Virus record (IMG/VR): IMGVR_UViG_3300045988_045189 | Span: 1 to 43,359 of that record | DNA: 43,359 bases | From: a virus | Strand: one strand, 5' to 3' | In this document: piece by piece, positions 3,213 to 41,371 of the stretch | How positions within the stretch are numbered: position 1 is the first letter of the stretch | How the letters are laid out: each line of letters begins with the position of its first letter | Made by a program: the position numbers and the translations under genes | The notes under the pieces: generated by a model | What the model was told of the DNA's origin: nothing | What the model saw: the letters and a program-made list of their open reading frames with translations, nothing else | Database searches by the model: none

Positions 3213-3962
3213 ATGTTGAAGGAAGCTATTGAGAAGATCGAGGAACTGGCAAAGCCGATCATTGTGGACAAAGAGGGCCACACCTACGCCGTGAACAATG
3301 ACGGTGTAGTGCGAGAGATCGCCCCGGCTATGGTTTGTCAGGATTGTCTGGCGCTGAACAGTCTGGACGCGCTGGTGCAGATGGTCAAGACGGAGGGCGT
3401 CCGTGGTGACAGCACTGCCAGCAGTGCGGACAAGCTGTATCTGTCCGTAAAGGATCACATGACCGTAGCCTGCTTTGGCCATCCGCAGAAGGACTTGCGG
3501 GAGGGGCGTATTTTCTACTACGAGGCGCAGGCCAAAGATGTTCCCGGCTGGGACGCCGAGGTGAAGATGGCCTTTGACAAGGCGGCTGTGGCCTTGCAGA
3601 CCCGCTTTCAGGATGGCGGCGACCGCGATTACACGCTGACGCTGCTGAGCCAGATCACTTGCGGCGCGAAGGTCACCTACAACGACATTGGCGTGGCAAC
3701 AACGGTGGTCACGCAAAAGGGGGTAAGCCTCCAGCAGAACAGCACCATCCGCCCGCTGGTGAAGCTGCGGCCTTACCGCACCTTCCAGGAGGTGGAGCAG
3801 CCGGAGGGCTTGTTCCTGATCCGCATTGACGAGCGGGGCATCACCTTCACGGAGGCGGACGGCGGCATGTGGAAGCTGGCGGCCCGCAAGACCATCAAGG
3901 CATATCTGGAGGAAGCTCTGAAGGACATGATCGACGACGGCAGTGTGGTCGTGATGATGTAA
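3213..3962 (+). CDS. Hypothetical early protein (249 aa)
   Basis: AAAGGAGAAAG ribosome-binding site; globular composition. Lies upstream of the recombination genes. Confidence 0.8.
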   Translation: MLKEAIEKIEELAKPIIVDKEGHTYAVNNDGVVREIAPAMVCQDCLALNSLDALVQMVKTEGVRGDSTASSADKLYLSVKDHMTVACFGHPQKDLREGRIFYYEAQAKDVPGWDAEVKMAFDKAAVALQTRFQDGGDRDYTLTLLSQITCGAKVTYNDIGVATTVVTQKGVSLQQNSTIRPLVKLRPYRTFQEVEQPEGLFLIRIDERGITFTEADGGMWKLAARKTIKAYLEEALKDMIDDGSVVVMM

Positions 3963-3964
3963 GT

Positions 3965-4001
3965 GAAAAAAGCCCCGGCGGAGCTGGCACTCCGTCGGGG
4001 C
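3965..4001. terminator. 12-bp GC-rich hairpin (GCCCCGGCGGAG/CTCCGTCGGGGC) preceded by A6
   Basis: Read directly. The T-run is on the minus strand only, so it would stop antisense transcription or act as a plus-strand pause site. Confidence 0.4.
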
Positions 4002-24513: not shown

Positions 24514-27500
24514 ATGGGTTGGCAGGATATCTACAAGAAGAAAATGCAGGAATCGGGCCTTGAGGCTGGCGATATCAATTTTGTTGATGTGGACACCTTC
24601 CATAAGAGGGAGCAGGAGCGGTGGAATGCCGAGGTGTCGTCCGGCAAAGTGCAAGCCGTGACGGCGCCGACGGCTCCTGCTGCGGCGACAAAGAAACGGG
24701 AGAGACAGGTGGTCTCTCCCTACGGGACGTTCCTGGGCGGGTTCTCCTTTGCGGGAGATCGGCAGAAAACCGCCAAGGAGCTGGCGGACGAAAAGGCCCA
24801 GCAGGAGGCGTATATCAAGGAGTACCGGCGGCTGGCGTGGCTTGATCTGGACGATTACCGCACAGAGGTGGAACAGGCTGGAAAAAAGGCACAGGAGAGC
24901 AAAGAACCGTATAATATCCACGCTTTTGGCGCTTACAATCCCCAAAAGTCGGAGGCAGAGCGTACTTACGCCACGATGAAGGCCGACCTGAACAAAGCCG
25001 AGAGCATCCAGTATGATATCAAGGGCCGCGAGGCGCTGGACAATCTGACGGAGGATCAGACCGCTGCATTGGAGGTGCTGACAGACACAACAGGCGTTCC
25101 CGCAGCTGCTGCGCATGTCGATGCCGCGCGGAAACAGGCTGCGCGGGAGGCACTGTTGGCATCTGGATTCTCGGAGGATGAGCTTTCGCAGCTGGTGAAT
25201 TACTATCGAAATATCCCCAAGCGGGAGAAGAACGCGGAGCGGTACGCCAAGGTGCAGGAGATGGCGCGGAATGAGGGCGAGAAGTCGCCTATTGGCGGTA
25301 CGCTGCTGTCGGTTCCGGCCAATCTTCTGAGCGGTGTAGGCGCTATCGACGCGGCGCTGCGGAAGCTGGCCGATCCCAATACGCCCACGGACTACAACGC
25401 CCCGGCCATGCTGCCTTATGCCTACGCCAGCGGCGTGCGGGGCGAGGTGACGAAAAACCTCCAGTATGACCACGGCGATGTGGCCGCGTTTGCGTATGGT
25501 GTGGGTACGTCTATGCTGGACAGCGCGGCCACGGTGGCACTGGCGGCGCTGGGCGTTCCGCCTGCTGCCGCTTCGGCCACACTGGGCGGCGCGGCGGCCA
25601 CCGACGCGATGGTGGCCGCAAAGGATCGTGGTCTGGACGATGACCACGCCATTGCCACCGGTGTGGCGGCGGGTATACTGGAATCTTTCTTTGAGAAGGT
25701 AAGTCTGGAAAGCCTGATCTCCATGAAGCTGCCCAGCGGGACGATGAAACAGCGGATCGTCGGCATGCTGAAGAATACTGCCATTCAGGCGGGCATTGAG
25801 GGCAGCGAGGAAGTGTTCACGGATATTGGCAATCTGTTGGCAGATAAGATCATCAACGGCGACATGACAGATGTGAACCAGCGGATCGCCGTATATATGG
25901 CTGGCGGCATGAGCTATCAGGAAGCGCAGCAGAAGGTCGTGGGCGAGACGATCAAGGACATGGCTGTGGACTTCGGTGCCGGTGCGCTGGCTGGCGGCCT
26001 GATGGGCGGCGGCAATATGGCGGTACAGACCGCCGTACAGGGCCGGTATCAGGATGCCATGCAACAGGTACGGCAGCAGTCCGGCGTGACCGGGGCTTAT
26101 CAGGCAAGCAAGGATGGCCGCACCACCTACAATGACGCCGACGCACAGATCCGTTCTGTGGTAAAGGACGGCAAGGTGCAGCTGGAGAGCGGCGAGACAG
26201 TAGACCCCAAGGACGTGCGCTTCAAGGATCAGCAGACCGCTGACCTCTACGAAGGTACTATCAACACAGCGGAGAACGCCGGGGCGGCGCAGGTGTTTGT
26301 GGATTCCTACACCGGCGGCGACGTGAGCCAGTATCTGCTGGGAATGAGACAGGCATATGAAGCAGGTCGGGCTGGCATCCCCGTGGAAGAAATGACGCAG
26401 GGGACGTTTGCCGACGATCTGAGCGAGGTACAGCGCAGTGCTGCCTATGAGCAGGGGCGGCTGGCGACGGAAGCGGAGTTCCCCACCATGGGCGACATGG
26501 GGCTGGGAGAATCTGGCAGTGCGGCATGGGACAAAGCAGAGAAGATCAACACCACACTGAGCAAGGGCAAGGTGCAGGCTGGCTTTACGGCGCTGTATCA
26601 GGCCGGTTTGCGGCGGGAATCTGCGGTCAACGTAAAGAGCGCGGCGGCCAGCGCACTGCCCCAGAGCGTGCAGACGGCGGCCTATGAGGCGGGCCTTTCC
26701 GACGCGGCGGCCAGCCTTGCACGGGAAAAGGCGGGGCTTACGCTTGTGAGCAGCGCAGGCAGCGAAAGCGGCCTTGTGGACAACGAGCATTCCCGGAAGA
26801 TGGCCAAGGAGCAGGCCGGTACGGCGGCGCTGCTGAACACGCTGGGCAAGAATCTGGGTGTGCGTATCGAGATGGTGGACACGATCTCCGGCGGTAAGGC
26901 CAACGGCGTGTACCTCTCCGGCCGAAACCTCATTCAGATCGCCGCCGACGCGGACAATGCCTTCGGCTTCGTGGCGGCCCATGAGGTGACACACCGCATG
27001 CAGGAGTTGGCGCCGGAGGAGTATCGTGCTTACCGCGATCACGCCATGAGCTACCGCGCACGGGAATCCGGCGAGGAGGGCGCTGCGGCGTATGTGGAGC
27101 GGTATCGGGCTATGGCCGAGGAGGCGGGCGTAAAGCTGACGCAGGAGGAGGCCATGGACGAGATCGCCGCCGACTTCACCCGCGACATGATGGAAAACGG
27201 CAAGCTTTTTGAGGATTTTGCCAAGGAGAACCGCAGCGCCGCGAAGAAGCTGCTAGACGCCCTGAAAGCCTTTATCGCAAAGGTCAAGTCCCTGTTCCGC
27301 AGCAAGGCGGCACAGGACAAGGCCGCACAGAACGCCTACGGCAAGAGCATGGCCGAACTGGAGCAGTGTGTGGCCTTGTGGCAGAAAGCCTATGACGCGG
27401 CGGGAAAACAGGCGCAAAAAGCAAAAACCGCCGCCCGCGAGGGCGACGGTGAGGGACGGTATCAGATCAAATATCCGCAGTACACGGAAACGGATATTAT

Positions 27501-30500
27501 GGATAATTCGGTGGCGCTTCAAAGCATGGATACCATCGGACATTTCACGGGAAACGAACTCGGAGACAGAAGTATCCCCCTCGACAAGAGAGTCAGGGCC
27601 TTTTTCGCGTCGCTCGGCAATAATGTGTACAGTGAACAGTTTGGAGATGTTGCGCTCAGCAAGTCGAGTATCAACTCCGAGTTCAGGCACGGAATAACAC
27701 CGCTTAAAGTCGTTACCTTTGCCGCCGTCCCAAGCGTAATAAAGGACGGTGTAGTCATTTATACGTTGAACAAAAACAGCAGCGGGCTTGAGAGAATTGT
27801 TGTCGCGGCGCCCGTTACTGTTGGGACACCCGCCGAGAAAATGTATGTGGCTGTGATGCTTCAGAGAGACCCGCAGAGCCAGCGGCTGTATCTGCATGAT
27901 GTGGTTACAGAAAAAGAGCTCGATATCAACAGTACCGAACACCTCAAAACCCATAGAGGGCCAGATACTGCTGAATACGAACTCTACACCACAGATATAC
28001 TACGGAACGCACTGAATGTCAAGGGCAAATTTTCCCTGAAAAAGCCATTGGAGGAGACAAAAGACCTGCTGGCGCTGCACAACCTGACAGAAACGAATCT
28101 TCTGGATGCTGTCAGACTGGGCGGGCTTCCGATGCCCTCTATCGCCGTGGTGAAGGGCGACGCGGGGCACAGTGAGTACGGCCCGATCTCCTTCGTTTTC
28201 AGCAAGGACACCATCGACCCGCAGCTGTTCCGCAGCAATAAGGTGTATGGCTATGATGCGTGGACACCCACCGCGCCGCAGATCGAATATGAGGTCAACG
28301 AAAAGGCCGCAGGACGTATTCATGACCTGTTTTACAGAATGCAGCGTGAAAAAGGCCGTGACTTTGTCAATCCGCTGTATTCCGTGGCCAACACGCTGGA
28401 GGATGAACTGAACCGCAAAGGTGGGTTGGAAAAGGTACTGGAGCCTATGCGGGACGATCCGCGTGTGATGAACATCTACCTTGAAGATACCGGACGTGGA
28501 GCAGTAGAAAAAGTGATGCGCCAAAACGTCAGCCGCATGGATGAAGGCCAGCAGGAAATGTCCGAGTTCCTGATCCGCGAATTGGGCGCTGACATTGTGG
28601 ACGGCTTCCGTGCAACCGGCAGCGAGGCTCCCATTGCCGCAAGAAGGCGGTGGTTTGCAGAACACGGCGAAGCGCTGAACGAGGCATTGCGGGAATACTA
28701 TGAAAAGCTGGGGCTGCCTGCGGAAGATGCCGCCGATGTGGTGAACGCTGAGACGAATGCAGCGAAGACAAAATATCTGCTGAATACGCGGAAGTATTTG
28801 AGCGGAAACACAGAGACGGTGACGGAAGAAGTCGATCTGGACGCTACCAATAATGCTATCCGCAAAAAGGTGGACAAGGCTGATTATGACCGCTGGCTGG
28901 ATGAGTTGTTTAAGGGTGTTGTAAAAAATGAGGGCATTTACAACGGTAAGGATTATTACACATCTTCCGGCAACCGCCGCAGCTTCTCTGCGACCCATTA
29001 TGAGATCACACTGGAGAATATTGTAAAGGCAATGAAGCGGGGCGACCAGAAGGGCACCAATACATTCTTTGGCGGACAAGCTATCTGGGGGGTGGCTTCA
29101 AAGGACTATAACTCCATTGATGAGATCAAGGCGGATTCCGGTCGACTGGTAAAAATGACGGAGGAAGAATACAGCGCCATCCGTCAGGAGTATTCGGCAC
29201 GGTTGGCAGAGTTGGCCAATGAGATCAAAGACCCCGCTGCCCGGAATGACTTTATTGCTTCGGACGATGCCGCTACGGCCATTGTGGAAACCCTGCGCAC
29301 AAAGCGTACCGCAGCAGCCATCGACAAGGAGCTGCGTACATATCCGACGCTGCGTATCAGGCCGGACACGGCGGGTAAGGTGCTGCAACTATTTGAAGAT
29401 ATTTCCAATATGCCCACAGGGTACTTTGAGGCAAAGCCGCAGCGTGCTGTGGGGTTTGACGAAGTGCTGGCCGCTGTGATCCCGGACGATACAAGCGCAA
29501 ATGCGAGGGCGGCACTGGCTCAGGCTGGCGTGAAAACGATTGAGTACAAGAGCGGAGATGAACAATCCCGCACAGATGCAGTAAACAGCGTGGAAGGCGC
29601 ACGCTTCCAGCTGAAATCCGCCACGGAGCTGGAGCGCGAGGTACGGGAGCTGAAGAAGGAGCGGCGGGCGCTGGAGAACCGGAACAAGGCACTCACTGAG
29701 CGCGTGGCCAAGTGGCGCGGGGAGCTGCGGCGCACCGAGACACCCAGCGTGCGCCCCGATGACGTGAAGAAGCTGGGGCGGCGGTTCCTCGATGAGTACG
29801 GTAGCAGCACCGACTATCGCGCCATTGAGAGCGACATGACGGCGCTGGGCAAGGCACTGATGGCCGACGATGTGTCCATGGACACCCTGCGGCCCCACGC
29901 CCGTGCGGCGGCGGAGAAGATCATCGACGGGGTGCTGGTGCAGGCGGAGAGCGGCGGGGAGCTGCTGGCCATCCGCGACCACCTGAAAAACGTCACGCTG
30001 CGGTATGCCGATGACGGCTCCATTCCGGATTTCAAGGACTGGCGCAGAGCCAACCGGGGGACGCTGAAGATCAGCGACAAGAGCGGCCTTGACGTGGATG
30101 TGGCGTACAGTGAGCTGACGGAGATGTTCGGCGAGGGCTATTTCCCCAGCACCATCATCCACCCCGGCGACCAGCTGCTGCGCATGAGCGAGGTGCTGGA
30201 CAACGTGGGCCGCATTTATGAGAATCCTTTTGACGGATTCCGTGACGCGGCGGTGACGGAGCTTTCCGACCTGCTGATCGACGGCATGATCGGCGAGGAT
30301 GTGCGGCAGAGCAACCCCACCTTTGCCGACCGGCAGGCACTGGAGCTTCAGGAGACCAAGGCACGGCTGACGCAGATGCTCATTAAGACCCGCGAGGGAC
30401 GTGACCGGCAGGTGGAGCGGATGCGGCGGCACTATCAGGAGCAGACCAAGGCCGGACGGGAGCGGCGCAATGCCACCGCCCTGCGGGCCAAGATCGCGCG

Positions 30501-33500
30501 GCATACCGCCGACCTGTCCCGGAAGCTGCTGACCCCCACGGACAAGCAGCACATTCCGGAGAAGCTGCGGCAGAGCGTGGCGGCGCTGCTGGGCAGCATC
30601 AATCAGGAGAGCGCGTACAGCATCAAGCCCGGCACGGAACACTATGTGATTCGTAAGGACGGCATGCGCGGCGGCCTTACGGGTGAGCATGTGGCGAACG
30701 GCGAGGGATTGCCCACGGCGCGGACACAGGCGGCCATTGCCCTGAAAAACGCCTATGACGAAATCCTCAAGAGCGGCGAAGCGCTGGTAATTGACCCCGA
30801 CCTGCTGGGCAGCGAGGGCGCGGGGCTGCTGGATCAGGTGATGGCGTTCGGCAACAAGCGCATTGCCGACATGAACAGCGAGGAGCTGACCACCGTATGG
30901 CAGGCGGTGCGGGCCATTGAGCAGAGCGTGTCCACCTTCAACAAGAATCTGGCGATTGAGCGCTATGCCGGGGTGCAGGAGCTGGCGGAAGCACTGCGGG
31001 ATGGCACGTTCTCCCGGAAGCGGGCCAACCGCAAGCTGGCGCTGGATCTCTATGACCCGTATACGTTCTTCTACGCCTACGGCGAGGCGGGCATGCAGGT
31101 ATACCGGACGCTGCGCAACGCGCAGGACAAGCAGAATACCATGCTGAAAACCATTCAGGCAGCGGCGGAGAAGTTCATGGACAAGGAGGTCTACAAGAAC
31201 CGTCTGGAGCGCCATGCGTTCTTCGTGGGCGAGGACGGCCAGCGGCTGGTGCTGACCACGGGGCAGATCATGAACCTCTACAATCTGGTGGGACGCGGCG
31301 AACAGGCGGTGCATCACCTGACGGTGGGCGGCGTGGTGCAGCCTGCCATTAAGAAAAACGGCAAACAGGCGGCCATTGAGCGGGGCACGGAGAACATCCG
31401 CCTGACGGTGGACGACCTGACCGCTATCACCGGCACGCTGACCGCAGCACAGCGGAGGGTGGCGGAGGGCTTCCAGAAGATCGCCAGCGGCGACCTTGCC
31501 AAGTGGGGCAACGAGGCCAGCATGACCGTGTATGGCTATCAGAAGTTCACGGAGGGGAAATACTGGCCCATCAAGGCGGCGCAGGAGGGCACCACCCAGA
31601 ACTCCGAGAAGGGCGCGGACGTGGCCCGCGAGATCAAGAACATGGGCAGCGCCAAGACTCTGACCCCCAACGCCAGCAACGCGCTGGAGATGGGGGACAT
31701 GTACGACGTGTTCGCCCAGAACGCCAGCGACATGATCCAGTACAGCACGCTGCTGGCCCCCATGGAGGACATCAACCGGCTATATAACTACCGCTACCGC
31801 GACGCCAAGGGCAACCTGACCGGCAAGAACGTGAAGCACGTTTTGACGGATGTGTACGGCGAGGCGGCGCAAAAATACTGGCGAAATCTGATGCGGGACG
31901 TGCAGAACGGCATGGGCAGCACCGGCACCGACACCACCCGATTCATTGAAAAGATGGTGGGCGGCGTGAAGGGCGCCAGCGTGGGCTTTAACCTACGGGT
32001 GGTGGCCCAGCAGCCGACGGCCTATGTCCGGGCGGCGGCCATTCTTGACCCATCTACGATGGCAAAGGGCATTGTGGGCGGCGCGACGGAGGGCAACGGC
32101 TGGGAAAAGGCCAAGAAGTACGCGCCCATTGCCAGCATCAAGGACACGGCGGGCTTTGACCAGAGCAGCCGGTACAGCATCGCCCAGAACGTCTATGGCG
32201 GTGAGGGCGGCGTGATGGACAAGCTGAACGACTGGAGCGGCTGGGCCGCCGGTAAGGCGGACGCCGTGACGTGGGGCGCTATCTGGAACGCCTGCGAGTG
32301 GACGGTGGTGAACGAGGGCGGCTATGAGAAAGGCAGTGACGCTTTCTTCTCCCGCGTGGCCCAGGTGTTCACAGAGGTCATTGACCAGTCTCAGGTGGTG
32401 GACGGCATCATGCAGCGGACGCAGATCATGCGGGACGCCAACGGCCTGACCAAGCAGGCCACGGCCTTTATGGGTGAGCCGCTGAAAACACTGAACATGT
32501 TCATGCGCGCCTATGACGCATGGCGGTTTGAGCAGAATATCCCGAAGCGCAGCGCCGCCATGAAGAAAATGACCCGCACCATCGGGGCCGTGCTGGTGAC
32601 GGATGTGGTGAACGCGCTGGTGCAGTCCCTTGTGGACGCCGCCCGTGACGACGATAAGGACAAGGGGTACTGGGCGCGGTACTGGGAGAAGCTGACCGGC
32701 GTCACCGGTGATAAGGAGAAGGACACCTTCCTGAATGTGCTGCTGGGCAGCAACCTCTGGGACAACGCTGACCCGCTGGGGCGGATTCCCTACGCGAAGG
32801 ACATTAAGTCGCTGATGCAGGGCTTTACGGTAAGCCGGATGGACGCCGACGCGGCGGGAGACTTCATTACAGCGGCGGAGGGCTTCGCCAAGAGTTTGCA
32901 GGGCGAGGGCAAGAAAACCCCGTTGTATGCTGCCAAGCAGCTGCTGACGGCGGGCAGTAAGATCTTCGGTGTCTCCGTAGCCAATGTGGGCCGTGACGTG
33001 TGGGCCATTGCCCGAAGCGTGGCGCAGGAGAGCGGCAATGTCCGCATGATGTACGAAATGGAGCGGGCCATCTGGCGGCTTGCGCCGGACGCGGGCAACA
33101 ACACTCGGTATTATAAACTGCTGTATATGGCCATGGAGCAGGACAAGGAAGCGTACCAGTATATCTATGACGATATGAAGAAGCGGGGGTACAGCGACGG
33201 ACAGCTCCAGAAGGGCATCAAGTCCGTTATTCAGGATTCCGGCGCGTCCGACACCGACATGCGCAAGCAGCTGGAGGATATCGGGTACAGCGAAGATGAA
33301 GCGCAGGTAATCGTCAGCAAGTGGGCCTTCAAGGAGAAGTACGGTTATGCCTACAACGAGAAGAGAGACGCATTTGTCGAGGGTGCTATTAACCGGCAGC
33401 AGCTGATCAATGAGATGGTCAGCATTGACGGTAAGACCCGCGAAGAGGCGGAAGCATATGTGACGCAGCTGCAATGCGAGGTCGATACCGGCATCAGCTA

Positions 33501-33915
33501 CGATGATCTTCGCGGCGCTTACAGTGCGGGCCGTATCCGCTACGATCAGGCGGTTTCCTACCTGAAACGGTATGGCGGCAAGGACGATGAATCCGCCACC
33601 AAGGCCGTTGAAAGATGGAAATTCACCGGAGACAGCGACGAGTACGACGATATTTCGACGGAGGCAGTGGAAAAGTATAACGAATACTGCGCCAGCACGG
33701 GTATGTCGGAGGACACCTACTACAAAGCATGGAGCGTCCTTCACAGCATGACCGGCGAGGACTACGACGGAGACGGCAAGAACGACGCTTACTCCAAGAT
33801 GGATAAGCGGCTGGAGTACATCGGCTCCCTGAATATCTCTTACGACCAGATGTTTGCATTGGCGCTGGCATCGGGTATCAGTGAAAAGCGGATCAACGAA
33901 CGGGCACCGTGGTAA
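24514..33915 (+). CDS. Giant 3,133-aa virion-module protein with HExxH metallopeptidase motif (polyvalent-protein-like)
   Basis: Uninterrupted ORF after TAAGGAGG. HEVTH at 26980..26994 in the context NAFGFVAAHEVTHRMQELAPEEY. Gly/Ala-rich hydrophobic segments, coiled coils and C-terminal helical repeats. Confidence 0.9.
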   Translation: MGWQDIYKKKMQESGLEAGDINFVDVDTFHKREQERWNAEVSSGKVQAVTAPTAPAAATKKRERQVVSPYGTFLGGFSFAGDRQKTAKELADEKAQQEAYIKEYRRLAWLDLDDYRTEVEQAGKKAQESKEPYNIHAFGAYNPQKSEAERTYATMKADLNKAESIQYDIKGREALDNLTEDQTAALEVLTDTTGVPAAAAHVDAARKQAAREALLASGFSEDELSQLVNYYRNIPKREKNAERYAKVQEMARNEGEKSPIGGTLLSVPANLLSGVGAIDAALRKLADPNTPTDYNAPAMLPYAYASGVRGEVTKNLQYDHGDVAAFAYGVGTSMLDSAATVALAALGVPPAAASATLGGAAATDAMVAAKDRGLDDDHAIATGVAAGILESFFEKVSLESLISMKLPSGTMKQRIVGMLKNTAIQAGIEGSEEVFTDIGNLLADKIINGDMTDVNQRIAVYMAGGMSYQEAQQKVVGETIKDMAVDFGAGALAGGLMGGGNMAVQTAVQGRYQDAMQQVRQQSGVTGAYQASKDGRTTYNDADAQIRSVVKDGKVQLESGETVDPKDVRFKDQQTADLYEGTINTAENAGAAQVFVDSYTGGDVSQYLLGMRQAYEAGRAGIPVEEMTQGTFADDLSEVQRSAAYEQGRLATEAEFPTMGDMGLGESGSAAWDKAEKINTTLSKGKVQAGFTALYQAGLRRESAVNVKSAAASALPQSVQTAAYEAGLSDAAASLAREKAGLTLVSSAGSESGLVDNEHSRKMAKEQAGTAALLNTLGKNLGVRIEMVDTISGGKANGVYLSGRNLIQIAADADNAFGFVAAHEVTHRMQELAPEEYRAYRDHAMSYRARESGEEGAAAYVERYRAMAEEAGVKLTQEEAMDEIAADFTRDMMENGKLFEDFAKENRSAAKKLLDALKAFIAKVKSLFRSKAAQDKAAQNAYGKSMAELEQCVALWQKAYDAAGKQAQKAKTAAREGDGEGRYQIKYPQYTETDIMDNSVALQSMDTIGHFTGNELGDRSIPLDKRVRAFFASLGNNVYSEQFGDVALSKSSINSEFRHGITPLKVVTFAAVPSVIKDGVVIYTLNKNSSGLERIVVAAPVTVGTPAEKMYVAVMLQRDPQSQRLYLHDVVTEKELDINSTEHLKTHRGPDTAEYELYTTDILRNALNVKGKFSLKKPLEETKDLLALHNLTETNLLDAVRLGGLPMPSIAVVKGDAGHSEYGPISFVFSKDTIDPQLFRSNKVYGYDAWTPTAPQIEYEVNEKAAGRIHDLFYRMQREKGRDFVNPLYSVANTLEDELNRKGGLEKVLEPMRDDPRVMNIYLEDTGRGAVEKVMRQNVSRMDEGQQEMSEFLIRELGADIVDGFRATGSEAPIAARRRWFAEHGEALNEALREYYEKLGLPAEDAADVVNAETNAAKTKYLLNTRKYLSGNTETVTEEVDLDATNNAIRKKVDKADYDRWLDELFKGVVKNEGIYNGKDYYTSSGNRRSFSATHYEITLENIVKAMKRGDQKGTNTFFGGQAIWGVASKDYNSIDEIKADSGRLVKMTEEEYSAIRQEYSARLAELANEIKDPAARNDFIASDDAATAIVETLRTKRTAAAIDKELRTYPTLRIRPDTAGKVLQLFEDISNMPTGYFEAKPQRAVGFDEVLAAVIPDDTSANARAALAQAGVKTIEYKSGDEQSRTDAVNSVEGARFQLKSATELEREVRELKKERRALENRNKALTERVAKWRGELRRTETPSVRPDDVKKLGRRFLDEYGSSTDYRAIESDMTALGKALMADDVSMDTLRPHARAAAEKIIDGVLVQAESGGELLAIRDHLKNVTLRYADDGSIPDFKDWRRANRGTLKISDKSGLDVDVAYSELTEMFGEGYFPSTIIHPGDQLLRMSEVLDNVGRIYENPFDGFRDAAVTELSDLLIDGMIGEDVRQSNPTFADRQALELQETKARLTQMLIKTREGRDRQVERMRRHYQEQTKAGRERRNATALRAKIARHTADLSRKLLTPTDKQHIPEKLRQSVAALLGSINQESAYSIKPGTEHYVIRKDGMRGGLTGEHVANGEGLPTARTQAAIALKNAYDEILKSGEALVIDPDLLGSEGAGLLDQVMAFGNKRIADMNSEELTTVWQAVRAIEQSVSTFNKNLAIERYAGVQELAEALRDGTFSRKRANRKLALDLYDPYTFFYAYGEAGMQVYRTLRNAQDKQNTMLKTIQAAAEKFMDKEVYKNRLERHAFFVGEDGQRLVLTTGQIMNLYNLVGRGEQAVHHLTVGGVVQPAIKKNGKQAAIERGTENIRLTVDDLTAITGTLTAAQRRVAEGFQKIASGDLAKWGNEASMTVYGYQKFTEGKYWPIKAAQEGTTQNSEKGADVAREIKNMGSAKTLTPNASNALEMGDMYDVFAQNASDMIQYSTLLAPMEDINRLYNYRYRDAKGNLTGKNVKHVLTDVYGEAAQKYWRNLMRDVQNGMGSTGTDTTRFIEKMVGGVKGASVGFNLRVVAQQPTAYVRAAAILDPSTMAKGIVGGATEGNGWEKAKKYAPIASIKDTAGFDQSSRYSIAQNVYGGEGGVMDKLNDWSGWAAGKADAVTWGAIWNACEWTVVNEGGYEKGSDAFFSRVAQVFTEVIDQSQVVDGIMQRTQIMRDANGLTKQATAFMGEPLKTLNMFMRAYDAWRFEQNIPKRSAAMKKMTRTIGAVLVTDVVNALVQSLVDAARDDDKDKGYWARYWEKLTGVTGDKEKDTFLNVLLGSNLWDNADPLGRIPYAKDIKSLMQGFTVSRMDADAAGDFITAAEGFAKSLQGEGKKTPLYAAKQLLTAGSKIFGVSVANVGRDVWAIARSVAQESGNVRMMYEMERAIWRLAPDAGNNTRYYKLLYMAMEQDKEAYQYIYDDMKKRGYSDGQLQKGIKSVIQDSGASDTDMRKQLEDIGYSEDEAQVIVSKWAFKEKYGYAYNEKRDAFVEGAINRQQLINEMVSIDGKTREEAEAYVTQLQCEVDTGISYDDLRGAYSAGRIRYDQAVSYLKRYGGKDDESATKAVERWKFTGDSDEYDDISTEAVEKYNEYCASTGMSEDTYYKAWSVLHSMTGEDYDGDGKNDAYSKMDKRLEYIGSLNISYDQMFALALASGISEKRINERAPW

Positions 33916-37634: not shown

Positions 37635-39050
37635 ATGCGCTACGGCATTGACATTTCGGACGCGCAGGGCGTGTTCGATTGGGATAAAGCCGAGGGTGTT
37701 ACCTTCGCCGTCCTGAAGGGCGGCGGGGGTAACAACGGCCTTTATACCAACAAGCAGTTCCAGCGGAACTATGAGGAGTGCGTCAAGCGCGGCATTGACG
37801 TGGGCTGCTACTGGTTCAGCAAGGCGCTGACCGTGGAACAGGCAGAGCAGGAGGCGGCGTATTTCTTCGACAACTGCCTTGCCGGAAAGAAGTTCACCCT
37901 GCCGGTGTACATGGACGTGGAACACAAGGAGATGCTGGCGCTGGGCAAGGACGCGCTGACGGCCATTGTGCTGGCCTTCTGCGAGGCACTGGAGCAGCGC
38001 GGCGCATGGGTGGGCATCTACTCCTCCCGCGCCATGTTCGAGGGCTATATGCACGACGAGCAGCTTTTCAGGTATGCCCACTGGGTGGCCGAGTGGAACG
38101 AGACGTGCCGTTATGGCCGGGACTTCGGCCTGTGGCAGTTCGGCGGCGAAACCAACAAGCTGCGGGACACCAAGGTGGCCGATGTGGTGTGTGACCAGGA
38201 TTACATGCTGACGGACTACCCCGTGATGCTGGCCATGAACGGGAAGAACGATTTCAGGGAGGTCGAGAAAATGACGGAACAGCAACTGAGACAGAATGTG
38301 GTAGACACGATTCTGGGCTGGGTGGGTCTTAACGAGGCGGACGGCAGCCACAAGAAGATCATCGACATTTATAACAGCCACAAGCCGCTGGCGAGGGGCT
38401 ACGCACTGAAATACACCGACGCATGGTGCGCCGGTACGGTCAGCGCCGTGGCTATCGTCAACAACATCACGGACATTATGCCCACGGAGGTGGGCGTGGG
38501 GAAGATGATCGACCTCTACAAAGCGCTGGGCCGCTGGATGGAGCGGGACGACTACAAACCCCAGATCGGCGATGTGGTGGTGTATGCGTGGAGCGACAAC
38601 GGCGTAGGCGAGTGTACCACCGGCGCGGATCATGTGGGCATCGTCACAAAGGTGTCCGGCACGTCCTTCTGGGTGACGGAGGGTAACTACCGCGACAGCG
38701 TAAAGACGCGGCCCATGCAGGTCAACGGGCGGTACATTCGCGGCTTCGGATTGCCGGACTATGCAAAGGCGGCTACCGGTGTAGCGTCCGCCATGCCGGA
38801 GACCGCCACGGAAGATGTGTTTGTGTCCCCCAAGCTTCGCCAGCTGAAAAAGGGCGTCAAGGATGGCAACGACGTGAAGGCGCTGCAAACGCTGCTGATC
38901 GAGAGCGGCTATTCATGCGGTGCGCGAGGTGCGGACAGAAGCTTCGGCAGCGCCACCGACGCGGCGGTGCGTAAGTACCAGAGTGACCACGGCCTGACCG
39001 CCGACGGTGTGGTCGGCGCGGTGACGTGGGGTAAGCTGCTGGGCGCGTGA
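37635..39050 (+). CDS. Three-domain endolysin: GH25 muramidase + CHAP/NlpC-P60-type cysteine peptidase + PG_binding_1
   Basis: YGIDISDAQGVFDWDK (GH25). DAWCAGTVS...DHVGIV...TEGNY (Cys/His peptidase). C-terminal DVKALQTLL...GSATDAAVRKYQSDHGLTADGVVGAVTWGKL. Confidence 0.9.
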   Translation: MRYGIDISDAQGVFDWDKAEGVTFAVLKGGGGNNGLYTNKQFQRNYEECVKRGIDVGCYWFSKALTVEQAEQEAAYFFDNCLAGKKFTLPVYMDVEHKEMLALGKDALTAIVLAFCEALEQRGAWVGIYSSRAMFEGYMHDEQLFRYAHWVAEWNETCRYGRDFGLWQFGGETNKLRDTKVADVVCDQDYMLTDYPVMLAMNGKNDFREVEKMTEQQLRQNVVDTILGWVGLNEADGSHKKIIDIYNSHKPLARGYALKYTDAWCAGTVSAVAIVNNITDIMPTEVGVGKMIDLYKALGRWMERDDYKPQIGDVVVYAWSDNGVGECTTGADHVGIVTKVSGTSFWVTEGNYRDSVKTRPMQVNGRYIRGFGLPDYAKAATGVASAMPETATEDVFVSPKLRQLKKGVKDGNDVKALQTLLIESGYSCGARGADRSFGSATDAAVRKYQSDHGLTADGVVGAVTWGKLLGA

Positions 39051-39231: not shown

Positions 39232-39269
39232 AAAAAATCCTCGTAACCATGCGGGTTACGAGGATTTTT
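39232..39269. terminator. Bidirectional intrinsic terminator (A6-TCCTCGTAACC ...GGTTACGAGGA-T5)
   Basis: 12-bp core stem plus A/T extensions. Follows the tRNA-like CCA and overlaps the integrase stop codon. Confidence 0.85.
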
Positions 39270-40445: not shown

Positions 40446-40488
40446 GACTGCTCCGGTGTGCTAGACCGGGGCAGTCTTTTTTGATTTT
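40446..40488 (+). terminator. Strong plus-strand intrinsic terminator between the NYN gene and int
   Basis: GACTGCTCCGGT gtgctag ACCGGGGCAGTC (12 bp, one G.U) followed by TTTTTTGATTTT. There is no plus-strand gene upstream. Confidence 0.75.
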
Positions 40489-41158
40489 ATGGGCGTTTCG
40501 CGTTGTAGGGATTGCCGCAGCTTCTTCGCCCGTCAATATGCTCCATCAGGGCTTTTTCGGGGCTAATTTCCATTCCCATTGTGTCCAGAATGACATCGAG
40601 CCCTTCGCGGCGGGCGAGTTTTGCGGCGGGGACAAAATCACTGTCTCCCGCAATAAGGACGATTTGATCGACCTGCTTTTTGTAGGCAAGAGATGCAATA
40701 TCGATGCCCAGCTTCATGTCGACGCCTTTTTGCTGAATCGTCGGGACAAAATGCTTTAATTCAAGCGTATCTTTTGTCAATGTGCCGGAACAGATTTTTT
40801 TCACAGCGTCATAGTTTAGCGTATAGACGGCATTAGCAACATCCAGTTCTCCCAGCCGCAGGGCCACCTTACGGCGCTGGCGCAGCTCAGAGAGAAACTT
40901 GGTCATCCATTTGTATTCGGCGGAAGCACGCATATTGACGATTTTCTCGGTGAGCGGATGATACATCTGCTTGTCTACAGGCTGACAGTCATAATAAAAG
41001 AGACGGTATAGCTCGTGTTCTTGCTTGTGTTCCTTCAGGTGCCGCCAACAGTATGTAATGAGGGCGTCGGCGGCTTCTTTGGGCTCATGTTCGCCCCACA
41101 AGTGCTTTGCACGTTTGCGGTAAAAACCGCCGTCAACAAGAATCGCTGTTTTTGACAT
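40487..41158 (-). CDS. NYN-domain (LabA/DUF88-like, PIN-related) putative ribonuclease, 223 aa
   Basis: ATG 41158 follows GGAGAG. Motifs AILVDGGF, QKGVDMKLGIDIASLA and IVLIAGDSDFVPAAKLARREG. Confidence 0.8.
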   Translation of the reverse strand: MSKTAILVDGGFYRKRAKHLWGEHEPKEAADALITYCWRHLKEHKQEHELYRLFYYDCQPVDKQMYHPLTEKIVNMRASAEYKWMTKFLSELRQRRKVALRLGELDVANAVYTLNYDAVKKICSGTLTKDTLELKHFVPTIQQKGVDMKLGIDIASLAYKKQVDQIVLIAGDSDFVPAAKLARREGLDVILDTMGMEISPEKALMEHIDGRRSCGNPYNAKRP

Positions 41159-41279
41159 AGTTCCCACTCTCCGTATAAAATCTAAAGCCCTTAGAACGGG
41201 CACTCCCCTGATCGTGGGGGACCTATTCCAAGGGCTTGTTAGGCACAACAGGCGGAACGGCGGTGCGTTCTTTGTTGTA
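41159..41279 (-). promoter_or_regulatory. Structured ~120-nt 5' leader of the NYN gene (two hairpins; the second is terminator-like)
   Basis: Hairpin 1 spans 41245-41278 (ACAACA..GAACG/CGTTC..TGTTGT). Hairpin 2 spans 41185-41237 (12-bp outer stem AAGCCCTTGGAA/TTCTAAGGGCTT with an inner CCCC/GGGG stem), followed on the RNA by UUUAGAUUUUAU and then the ribosome-binding site. Confidence 0.55.
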
Positions 41280-41285
41280 CGTTAA

Positions 41286-41314
41286 ATAATATGTCCTCGG
41301 GATCAAAAAGTCAA
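41286..41314 (-). promoter_or_regulatory. Near-consensus sigma-A promoter for the NYN gene (TTGACT - 17 nt - TATTAT)
   Basis: Reverse complement of 41309-41314 = TTGACT and of 41286-41291 = TATTAT. Confidence 0.65.
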
Positions 41315-41338
41315 CCCGGTTTTATGATATTTGTACAA

Positions 41339-41371
41339 AATAACGAAACGATATGCCGTTATTCCGTTATT
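41339..41371 (-). terminator. AT-rich inverted repeat AATAACG-N11-CGTTATT plus a second CGTTATT; weak terminator or operator downstream of the XRE gene
   Basis: On the minus strand the hairpin is followed by TTTTGT. Lies 25-60 nt upstream of the NYN promoter. Confidence 0.35.

Follow-up and report, generated by a model that had tools for sequence, protein, structure and literature searches.

In type III toxin-antitoxin systems (ToxIN, CptIN, TenpIN and AbiQ/antiQ), a promoter, a non-coding RNA and an intrinsic terminator stand together with the gene for an endoribonuclease; these systems travel with mobile elements and have been connected with abortive infection. Some other ribonucleases act on, or recognise, structures in their own transcripts: Regnase-1 (ZC3H12A), a PIN/NYN-like RNase, cleaves a stem-loop in its own 3' untranslated region, and in Escherichia coli the leaders of RNase E and RNase III are recognised by their own nucleases. 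Here we describe a cassette in a viral DNA of 43,359 nucleotides (nt; IMG/VR record IMGVR_UViG_3300045988_045189, analysed in full and hereafter called the window) that looks like a complete temperate-phage genome. In this cassette, the gene for a predicted NYN-domain ribonuclease lies under a conserved RNA hairpin shaped like a terminator, the two possibly forming an RNA-protein pair akin to a toxin-antitoxin. By covariance-model matching, the hairpin represents a diverged form of a widespread RNA motif, whose Staphylococcus subset is the Rfam family TEG147 (RF03535).

With type III toxin-antitoxin systems, the cassette shares gene order and carriage on mobile elements. It differs in that its RNA is one structured hairpin, whereas a type III antitoxin consists of tandem repeats, and in that its nuclease is NYN/PIN-like, whereas a type III toxin has the ToxN fold. 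Lacking a repeat array and having another toxin fold, the cassette as read from its sequence falls outside the known type III families. The likeness to Regnase-1, RNase E and RNase III is one of analogy, in that a conserved structured element in an RNase's own transcript offers a route to negative feedback; in contrast to those examples, the element described here is terminator-shaped and would yield a separate short RNA. The parts of the cassette, in the direction of transcription, are as follows.

41286-41314, minus strand: sigma-70-type promoter (-35 TTGACT at 41314-41309, 17-nt spacer, -10 TATTAT at 41291-41286)
41243-41280, minus strand: hairpin 1 (minimum free energy -13.4 kcal/mol, z = -3.2), beginning close to where the transcript is predicted to start
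41182-41242, minus strand: hairpin 2, the TEG147-family motif (core 41236-41186, z = -3.4)
41175-41185, minus strand: interrupted U-rich tail UUAGAUUUUAU, directly 3' of hairpin 2
41169-41172, minus strand: Shine-Dalgarno-like GGAG, 10 nt upstream of the ATG
41158-40487, minus strand: NYN-domain (PIN-like) predicted ribonuclease of 223 amino acids (aa), ATG at 41158, stop codon ending at 40487

The initial annotation had described a stand-alone NYN gene with its own TTGACT-17-TATTAT promoter and a two-hairpin leader of ~120 nt, and all of these are present. The promoter has 10 of 12 consensus matches, both by direct reading and by a consensus scan. The leader folds as two hairpins with a minimum free energy of -46.9 kcal/mol (z = -3.4 against dinucleotide shuffles), and the core of hairpin 2 lies within 1 nt of where it had been placed. 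In hairpin 2, an outer stem of 9-12 bp leads through a short middle stem to the apical CCCC/GGGG stem, which closes a loop of 7 nt (ACGAUCA); of the first 8 nt of the U-tract that follows, 5 are U. Neither tandem repeats nor a leader peptide were found in the leader. An alternative pairing between hairpin 1 and hairpin 2 (AGAACG/CGUUCU) is missing in two close relatives (L003 and L004 among our numbered loci) and was taken as chance. So, probably, is an antisense promoter-like site at 41152-41181 on the plus strand (TTGACA-18-TAAAAT, 11/12), which overlies the NYN start and the U-tract, since it needs ATGTCAAAA codons that are absent from most relatives.

Conservation of the leader was assessed in two sets of loci. 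The first comprised 80 IMG/VR loci with genes for NYN relatives (52-99% identity), whose upstream regions were read. A hairpin was found at the same place in all 48 distinct upstream sequences, one of which has a damaged 5' strand and one of which is cut by a contig end; across these loci, the stems differ in sequence and keep their complementarity. An alignment of 26 sequences, which shows compensatory changes in every one of 15 pairs, gave a 15-pair consensus structure and from it a covariance model (R1). The second set comprised 80 loci from species-representative genomes (GTDB), found via the protein alone. A second model (R2) was built from 67 of these, with the window and its close relatives left out to avoid circularity. 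At 79 of the 80 GTDB loci, the R1 match lay immediately 5' of the NYN gene, and at the eightieth a variant motif spotted by eye scored 27.2 bits with R2. All 15 pairs covary in this set, canonical pairs make up 94% of cells, and double-change cells number 277 compared to 69.6 ± 6.8 in shuffles. When the 3' partner was slid by 1-3 columns as a control, pairing fell to 32-57%. The G-U pairs are consistent with the sense strand. Applied to the window, R2 found hairpin 2 at 41246-41169 (45.3 bits, E = 2.9e-9), its sole match with E < 0.5 across the 43 kb; elsewhere, it scored 42 bits in Moraxella phage Mcat4 and 41.3 bits in Burkholderia phage phiE202.

The covariation among homologues that the initial annotation had named as a check is thus found in all 15 pairs, and the conserved hairpin is hairpin 2. 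The wider idea of a conserved leader holds for this hairpin and fails for hairpin 1, which is clade-specific: counterparts of other sequence occur in L003, L008, L062, L075 and others, and it is missing from many relatives, such as those in Staphylococcus aureus, where the -10 lies only ~30 nt upstream of the motif. The 5' leader upstream of the motif varies in sequence and length. The promoter had been correctly called, and the family keeps it: 51 of 79 loci reach 10 or more of the 12 consensus matches, compared to 28 of 395 shuffles (7%). The -10 typically ends ~26-47 nt upstream of the conserved hairpin, with the distance to the stem ranging from 9 to ~100 nt across loci.

Conservation extends to the loops. 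The apical loop has a 7-nt consensus, A-N-N-A-U-A-N, in which A43 and U44 are invariant (80/80). In the internal loop, the bases of the 5' strand A-G-U-A are conserved at 76, 88, 90 and 99% and those of the 3' strand G-A-A at 83, 94 and 66%, and this AGUA/GAA pattern is, at the level of sequence, the consensus of a sarcin-ricin (loop-E) motif. Of 80 instances, 71 have 5 U or more among the 8 nt that follow the stem, an upstream A-rich flank able to pair with the U-tract is conserved, and GGAG or AGGAGG directly follows the U-tract in relatives too. We dropped the idea that the apical loop mimics an anticodon loop or complements AUG, its third base being unconserved (U 30, C 24, G 20, A 6). The motif is single-copy at each locus except one from Lachnospiraceae (L212), where two tandem copies precede the NYN gene at 3653-3731 and 3893-3971 (49.9 and 44.5 bits).

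The relation to TEG147 connects the window to an RNA that has been detected experimentally. Teg147 is a ~60-nt small RNA (sRNA) from a genomic island of S. aureus (PMC5826253, PMC3053349); it is expressed in strain HG003 and was counted there among the "bona fide" stand-alone sRNAs (PMC5826253), and a JAR3D survey listed RF03535 among the predicted sarcin-ricin-containing families (PMC13085918). Neither a function nor a link to an NYN gene is given in the Teg147 literature that we searched. At gathering thresholds, Rfam gave no match across the whole window. RF03535 scored hairpin 2 at 18.6 bits (E = 1.6), short of its gathering score of 56.1; this weak match in the leader proved real, and for seven out of nine relatives the same model scored the corresponding site at 30.6-55.1 bits. 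Three other weak Rfam matches at the locus (RAGATH-25, Ref55 and c4-a1b1; E up to 10) were judged to be chance.

A search with the orthologue from Streptococcus phage Javan85 found NYN proteins in S. aureus, one of them encoded in an island that directly precedes the ssl superantigen-like genes (the nuSa-alpha island). At the S. aureus site, TEG147 scores 86.6 bits, above its gathering threshold, and ends 18 nt before the NYN ATG; R2, the same model that matches the window, scores 63 bits there. The two RNAs share the outer stem, the CCC..GGG apical stem, the 7-nt loop and the U-tract, and both sit just 5' of the ATG of orthologous NYN genes. The Teg147 architecture includes the AGUA/GAA loop found in most of the family. 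The two differ in that the Rfam model is narrow and the clade of the window lacks the sarcin-ricin loop and carries an extra 5' hairpin. What had been called an uncharacterised cis-RNA element therefore belongs to a family whose Staphylococcus members are catalogued as RF03535/Teg147, and the label is half right. On this comparison, the Staphylococcus RNA subset in Rfam was known before, and the wider motif family and its NYN linkage are new. In five Staphylococcus-type loci (L097, L099, L101, L133 and L169), the motif is intact and the NYN gene has decayed (ATG to ATA, frame broken), and Teg147 may thus be an orphan RNA in some strains. The same S. aureus island also carries an azaaromatic (yjdF) riboswitch (L088:3750-3850, 98.9 bits) that precedes a DUF2992 gene, ~1 kb upstream of the Teg147-NYN cassette.

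The association of the motif with the NYN gene is consistent. With R1 and R2 together, the motif was found directly upstream of a gene of the NYN family in all 80 species-representative genomes; it also precedes the NYN gene in phages of Dorea, Streptococcus, Lactococcus, Moraxella and Burkholderia and, as R2 matches, on plasmids of Xanthomonas and Aeromonas. In the reverse test, a degenerate pattern of the motif core was run over IMG/VR and gave 86 sites. The NYN gene follows immediately in 41 of these. About two dozen sites lack the flanking stems and look like chance matches. Some 19 true-looking orphans are accounted for by contig-end cuts, by decayed NYN 5' ends (as in L173, which reads MRTAILVDGA and then breaks), or by a swapped gene, namely Abi_2, HicA, RhuM, DUF4160/DUF2442 or the recombinase itself. 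Because NYN follows 41 of the pattern hits and the true-looking orphans come down to contig ends, decay and swaps, the motif belongs, as far as genomic distribution can tell, to the NYN gene; the cassette slot is an exchange site for abortive-infection and toxin-antitoxin cargo.

The neighbourhoods of the cassette are those of mobile elements. At 29 of the 64 genome loci, the product of the largest open reading frame (ORF) within 1.5 kb downstream is a recombinase of the tyrosine or serine type. The NYN gene lies between repressor and int in Javan85, as in the window, and between a toxin-antitoxin pair and int in the P2-like phiE202, while in pF003 the cassette stands beside other toxin-antitoxin genes. 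In E. coli phage ev099 and Proteus phage Brookers, the NYN gene follows cI and precedes N; in phage lambda, this site is occupied by rexAB. The position in the immunity region and an own promoter are common to the two arrangements, but the NYN protein has no sequence or domain relation to the Rex proteins. Homologues occur in 48 records of Stx2a-converting phages, in 74 of 5426 complete E. coli genomes (with a generic name only) and on 168 plasmids, mostly of Campylobacter and Xanthomonas, of which 129 are predicted to be conjugative. Judged by this distribution, the RNA and NYN pair is a mobile cassette of Bacillota, Actinomycetota, Spirochaetota, Bacteroidota, Pseudomonadota and Deinococcota.

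The 223-aa NYN protein itself is real, with the AILVDGGF, GVDMKLGIDI and IAGDSDFVP segments of the initial annotation all present. Pfam NYN (PF01936) matches residues 91-191 with 47.8 bits (cut-off 24.2; E = 2.9e-12), and PHROG 5783, a phage family of unknown function, matches with E = 1.3e-83. In an alignment with 47 homologues (49-85% identity), D9, D57, D147, D153, D172, D174, D188, D192 and D209 are invariant. These include the hallmark NYN residues D9 (AILVDGG), D147 (GVD) and D172/D174 (GDSDF), and the conserved acidic residues are also kept in homologues from proteobacterial phages. This alignment check bears out the call of a stand-alone NYN nuclease gene, whose product is predicted to be a metal-dependent ribonuclease. 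An AlphaFold2 model of the protein had a mean confidence (pLDDT) of 90.1, and its top structural matches in BFVD were NYN/LabA-like viral proteins (E 6e-7 to 2e-4, weak TM scores of 0.4-0.5). The protein lies outside the TIGR00288 subfamily, for which it scores 34 bits where 178 are required, and the NCBIfam search stayed below threshold. PADLOC matched no defence system and returned a weak domain-level NYN hit alone. The nearest relatives in species-representative genomes are from Oscillibacter and Flavonifractor (71% identity).

The anatomy, conservation, covariation, exclusive NYN linkage and mobility of the cassette lead us to favour, at roughly an even chance, a mobile module in which a terminator-shaped RNA limits an NYN RNase and is probably its specific RNA partner. 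In this model, a constitutive sigma-70-type promoter would make mostly short RNA ending at the Teg147-family hairpin, which has the shape of an intrinsic terminator, with its outer stem and U-tract just before the ribosome-binding site. The RNase would be translated solely from transcripts that read through the hairpin, and because translation would need read-through, its output would be low relative to the short RNA. Mostly short RNA agrees with the sRNA data from S. aureus; for this phage, with its weak U-tract, such termination is what we infer. Most likely, the NYN protein also binds the hairpin as its specific RNA ligand, since a bare terminator needs neither conserved loop and NYN is the only constant neighbour; that invariant loop bases and a sarcin-ricin-type loop are kept over six phyla while the stems covary argues for recognition by a macromolecule. 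Binding could serve negative feedback through a structure in the protein's own mRNA, or direct inhibition of a potentially toxic RNase in the style of a type III toxin-antitoxin.

The cassette rides on prophage lysogeny modules, islands and plasmids, and its role is most likely in phage defence or exclusion or in maintenance of the element. Only the context, i.e., a slot shared with Abi and toxin-antitoxin genes and the position of lambda rex, suggests the defence or exclusion role. The searched literature held no publication on NYN proteins in connection with prophage defence, an RNA antitoxin, type III toxin-antitoxins or abortive infection. A further step, namely that hairpin and NYN protein make up an unrecognised and widespread family of RNA-protein toxin-antitoxin or defence systems, in which a single hairpin restrains a PIN-like RNase, is in our estimation unlikely. 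In such a family, the sarcin-ricin-type and apical loops might mimic the natural RNA target or a docking site of the RNase.

Several observations weigh against the favoured reading. In the clade of the window (the window, L001-L004 and the Oscillibacter and Flavonifractor loci L176-L178), ordinary near-continuous pairing replaces the AGUA/GAA loop; in the window, GGAAUAGG stands against CCCGUUCU with pairs A-U, A-U and U-G, and the sarcin-ricin loop is not present. The U-tract of this clade is interrupted and at the weak end of the family, and a simple terminator scan made no call at the site of hairpin 2. Either the loop or the U-tract may be dispensable, or the clade may work differently; it adds hairpin 1, while the apical CCCC/GGGG stem and the loop positions A-N-N-A-U are kept. 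In enterobacterial, Thermus and Pseudomonas relatives, the same place is taken by a hairpin and T-run of another interior design, and the element common to all relatives may be just a terminator. No protein columns were found to track the RNA variants or the loss of AGUA/GAA, in a scan that used crude classes and was confounded by phylogeny. The strain behind the S. aureus sRNA data may carry a decayed copy of the downstream gene. As to the protein, Foldseek with the NYN model gave nothing below E = 1e-3 against the PDB, and sequence and profile searches of the PDB gave no informative match, so the fold assignment is based on Pfam and the weak BFVD matches. Because none of the three PDB searches gave anything useful, the protein is, by sequence and model, a divergent NYN subfamily without a solved relative.

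Two structural variants were observed among the relatives. The ev099 and Brookers loci (L081:2925-2995 and L085:2925-2995) have a different leader hairpin followed by a T-run (z ~ -4), and their NYN proteins are longer at the C-terminus (~275-285 aa). Between the two phages, this hairpin shows a compensatory change, GCAGA/UCUGC to GUAGA/UCUAC, and its outer stem AGCCC..GGGCU resembles that of the main family, of which it may be a diverged homologue. A subtype in L190, L195, L204, L225 and L234 has AAUGA-A/CA-type and CCAGAUUAC strands instead of AGUA/GAA. Copies of the L190 type from Treponema and Collinsella genome bins have almost the same motif, pointing to either recent transfer of the whole cassette across phyla or mis-binned metagenome contigs.

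Among the alternatives, a type-III-like toxin-antitoxin or abortive-infection module is a sharper form of the favoured reading. Excess terminated RNA would bind and inhibit the NYN toxin, and infection or loss of the element would lower the RNA and free the RNase. The succession of promoter, RNA, terminator and RNase gene is that of ToxIN-type loci, and every intact NYN gene examined is accompanied by the RNA; remnants with RNA only and a decayed NYN gene exist, while the reverse case was not seen. Carriage on prophages, islands and conjugative plasmids, the adjoining toxin-antitoxin genes in phiE202 and pF003, and the swapping of the slot with Abi_2 and HicAB genes point in the same direction. 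However, the RNA is single-copy rather than a tandem-repeat array (two copies at most, in L212), NYN is unrelated to the ToxN, AbiQ, CptN and TenpN toxins, PADLOC gives no system beyond its weak domain hit, and the searched literature is without any system combining NYN with an RNA antitoxin. We consider this alternative possible, though on the unlikely side.

The cassette could instead be a plain insulated moron, with a leaky intrinsic terminator and RNA stabiliser that hold an enzyme at a low constitutive level and with no protein partner for the RNA. The enzyme would process phage RNA or degrade host RNA, and the conserved loops would reflect folding or terminator efficiency. The conserved U-tract with its pairing-capable A-rich flank fits this account, as do the distant relatives that retain hairpin and U-tract around a changed interior, the loss of the sarcin-ricin loop in the clade of the window, and the failure of the crude scan to detect co-variation of protein and RNA. 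Ordinary terminators, on the other hand, do not keep loop bases that are 100% invariant and a sarcin-ricin loop while their stems covary, let alone across phyla including Bacillota, Actinomycetota, Spirochaetota, Bacteroidota and Pseudomonadota, and this motif travels with the NYN gene family only. Such a moron is improbable.

The riboswitch- or attenuator-like architecture seen in the initial annotation did not hold up. In a riboswitch or classical attenuator, a small molecule, a tRNA or a stalled ribosome would toggle between terminator and antiterminator; a terminator-like hairpin does stand directly upstream of the ribosome-binding site, and some riboswitch aptamers are very small. Yet the terminator hairpin is the sole conserved element, with no separate aptamer and no conserved antiterminator: the upstream leader differs in length and sequence among loci, and the 32 nt upstream of the hairpin pair with either hairpin strand no better than shuffles do (mean z +0.25; 1 of 78 loci below -2). 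A leader peptide is absent, Rfam returned no riboswitch match even at E up to 10, and the gene context is one of mobile elements rather than metabolism, all of which leave this explanation with very little probability. Equally doubtful is an independent trans-acting sRNA gene to which NYN is a mere neighbour: the "bona fide" stand-alone class of Teg147 in HG003 (PMC5826253) and the orphan copies without NYN speak for it, but the motif lies on the same strand 5-60 nt before the NYN start, is linked to it in 80/80 genomes, and its orphans hold NYN 5' remnants or occupy the usual NYN site.

The setting of the cassette in the window agrees with its setting elsewhere. It had been placed between the repressor operon and int, and it is indeed flanked by an XRE/ImmA-type lysogeny module on one side and the integrase on the other. 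The neighbouring features are the following.

42844-42512, minus strand: XRE repressor, opening the lysogeny module (in 5' to 3' order)
second in the lysogeny module, after the XRE repressor, minus strand: M78/ImmA-like fragment
third in the lysogeny module, before the HTH_3 gene, minus strand: KTSC-domain protein and a small protein
41619-41407, minus strand: 70-aa HTH_3 protein, directly preceding the NYN cassette
40446-40476, plus strand: 12-bp perfect GC-rich stem, then TTTTTTGATT, between the NYN stop and int
40371-39256, minus strand: tyrosine integrase with an N-terminal zinc ribbon, after the NYN cassette
ending at 39050, plus strand: GH25/CHAP endolysin, the last of the plus-strand genes

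The hairpin at 40446-40476 is oriented as a plus-strand terminator, antisense to NYN and int. Read on the minus strand, its stem has one mismatch and no U-tail, and NYN transcripts may for this reason run on into int. The interval from the 70-aa HTH gene to the NYN promoter contains 2.5 copies of an 8-nt unit, TATTCCGT (41352-41371, minus strand), and an AU-rich hairpin followed by UUUUG (41336-41368, minus strand; fold z = -1.0, not significant). The stretch 41336-41371 may serve as an operator, or as a weak terminator for the operon upstream. The start of the integrase (40371-40300, minus strand) contains a zinc-ribbon-like segment, MLCKSCKQEMPDSSAFCPWCGKKQ, with a below-threshold match to Pfam DZR (E = 5.5e-4). 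Just past the endolysin gene, a 16-bp hairpin with a T-run (39233-39269, plus strand) lies in the interval ahead of int, the expected place of attP. A tRNA gene was not found in the 43-kb window, and a single ORF of 3133 aa (24514-33915, plus strand) lies within the phage structural region.

These findings tie an orphan Rfam family, and with it the S. aureus sRNA Teg147, to a specific partner gene. The cassette is found in human-gut phages, in Stx2a phages of Shiga toxin-producing E. coli, on Campylobacter and Xanthomonas plasmids and in a staphylococcal pathogenicity-associated island. If the hairpin proves to be merely a leaky terminator, it would still be a clear case of covariation exposing an unusually constrained one. 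If the RNA restrains the RNase, the cassette would represent a nuclease module of a new, RNA-controlled class, with a bearing on phage defence, on prophage and plasmid maintenance and on sRNA annotation, and would offer a compact recognition pair of a 60-nt hairpin and a 25-kDa protein. Were the pair to form a toxin-antitoxin or defence family, this family would extend over prophages, plasmids and islands from six phyla or more, with the S. aureus nuSa-alpha island and the Stx2a-converting phages of E. coli among them, and a function would be assigned to a catalogued staphylococcal sRNA.

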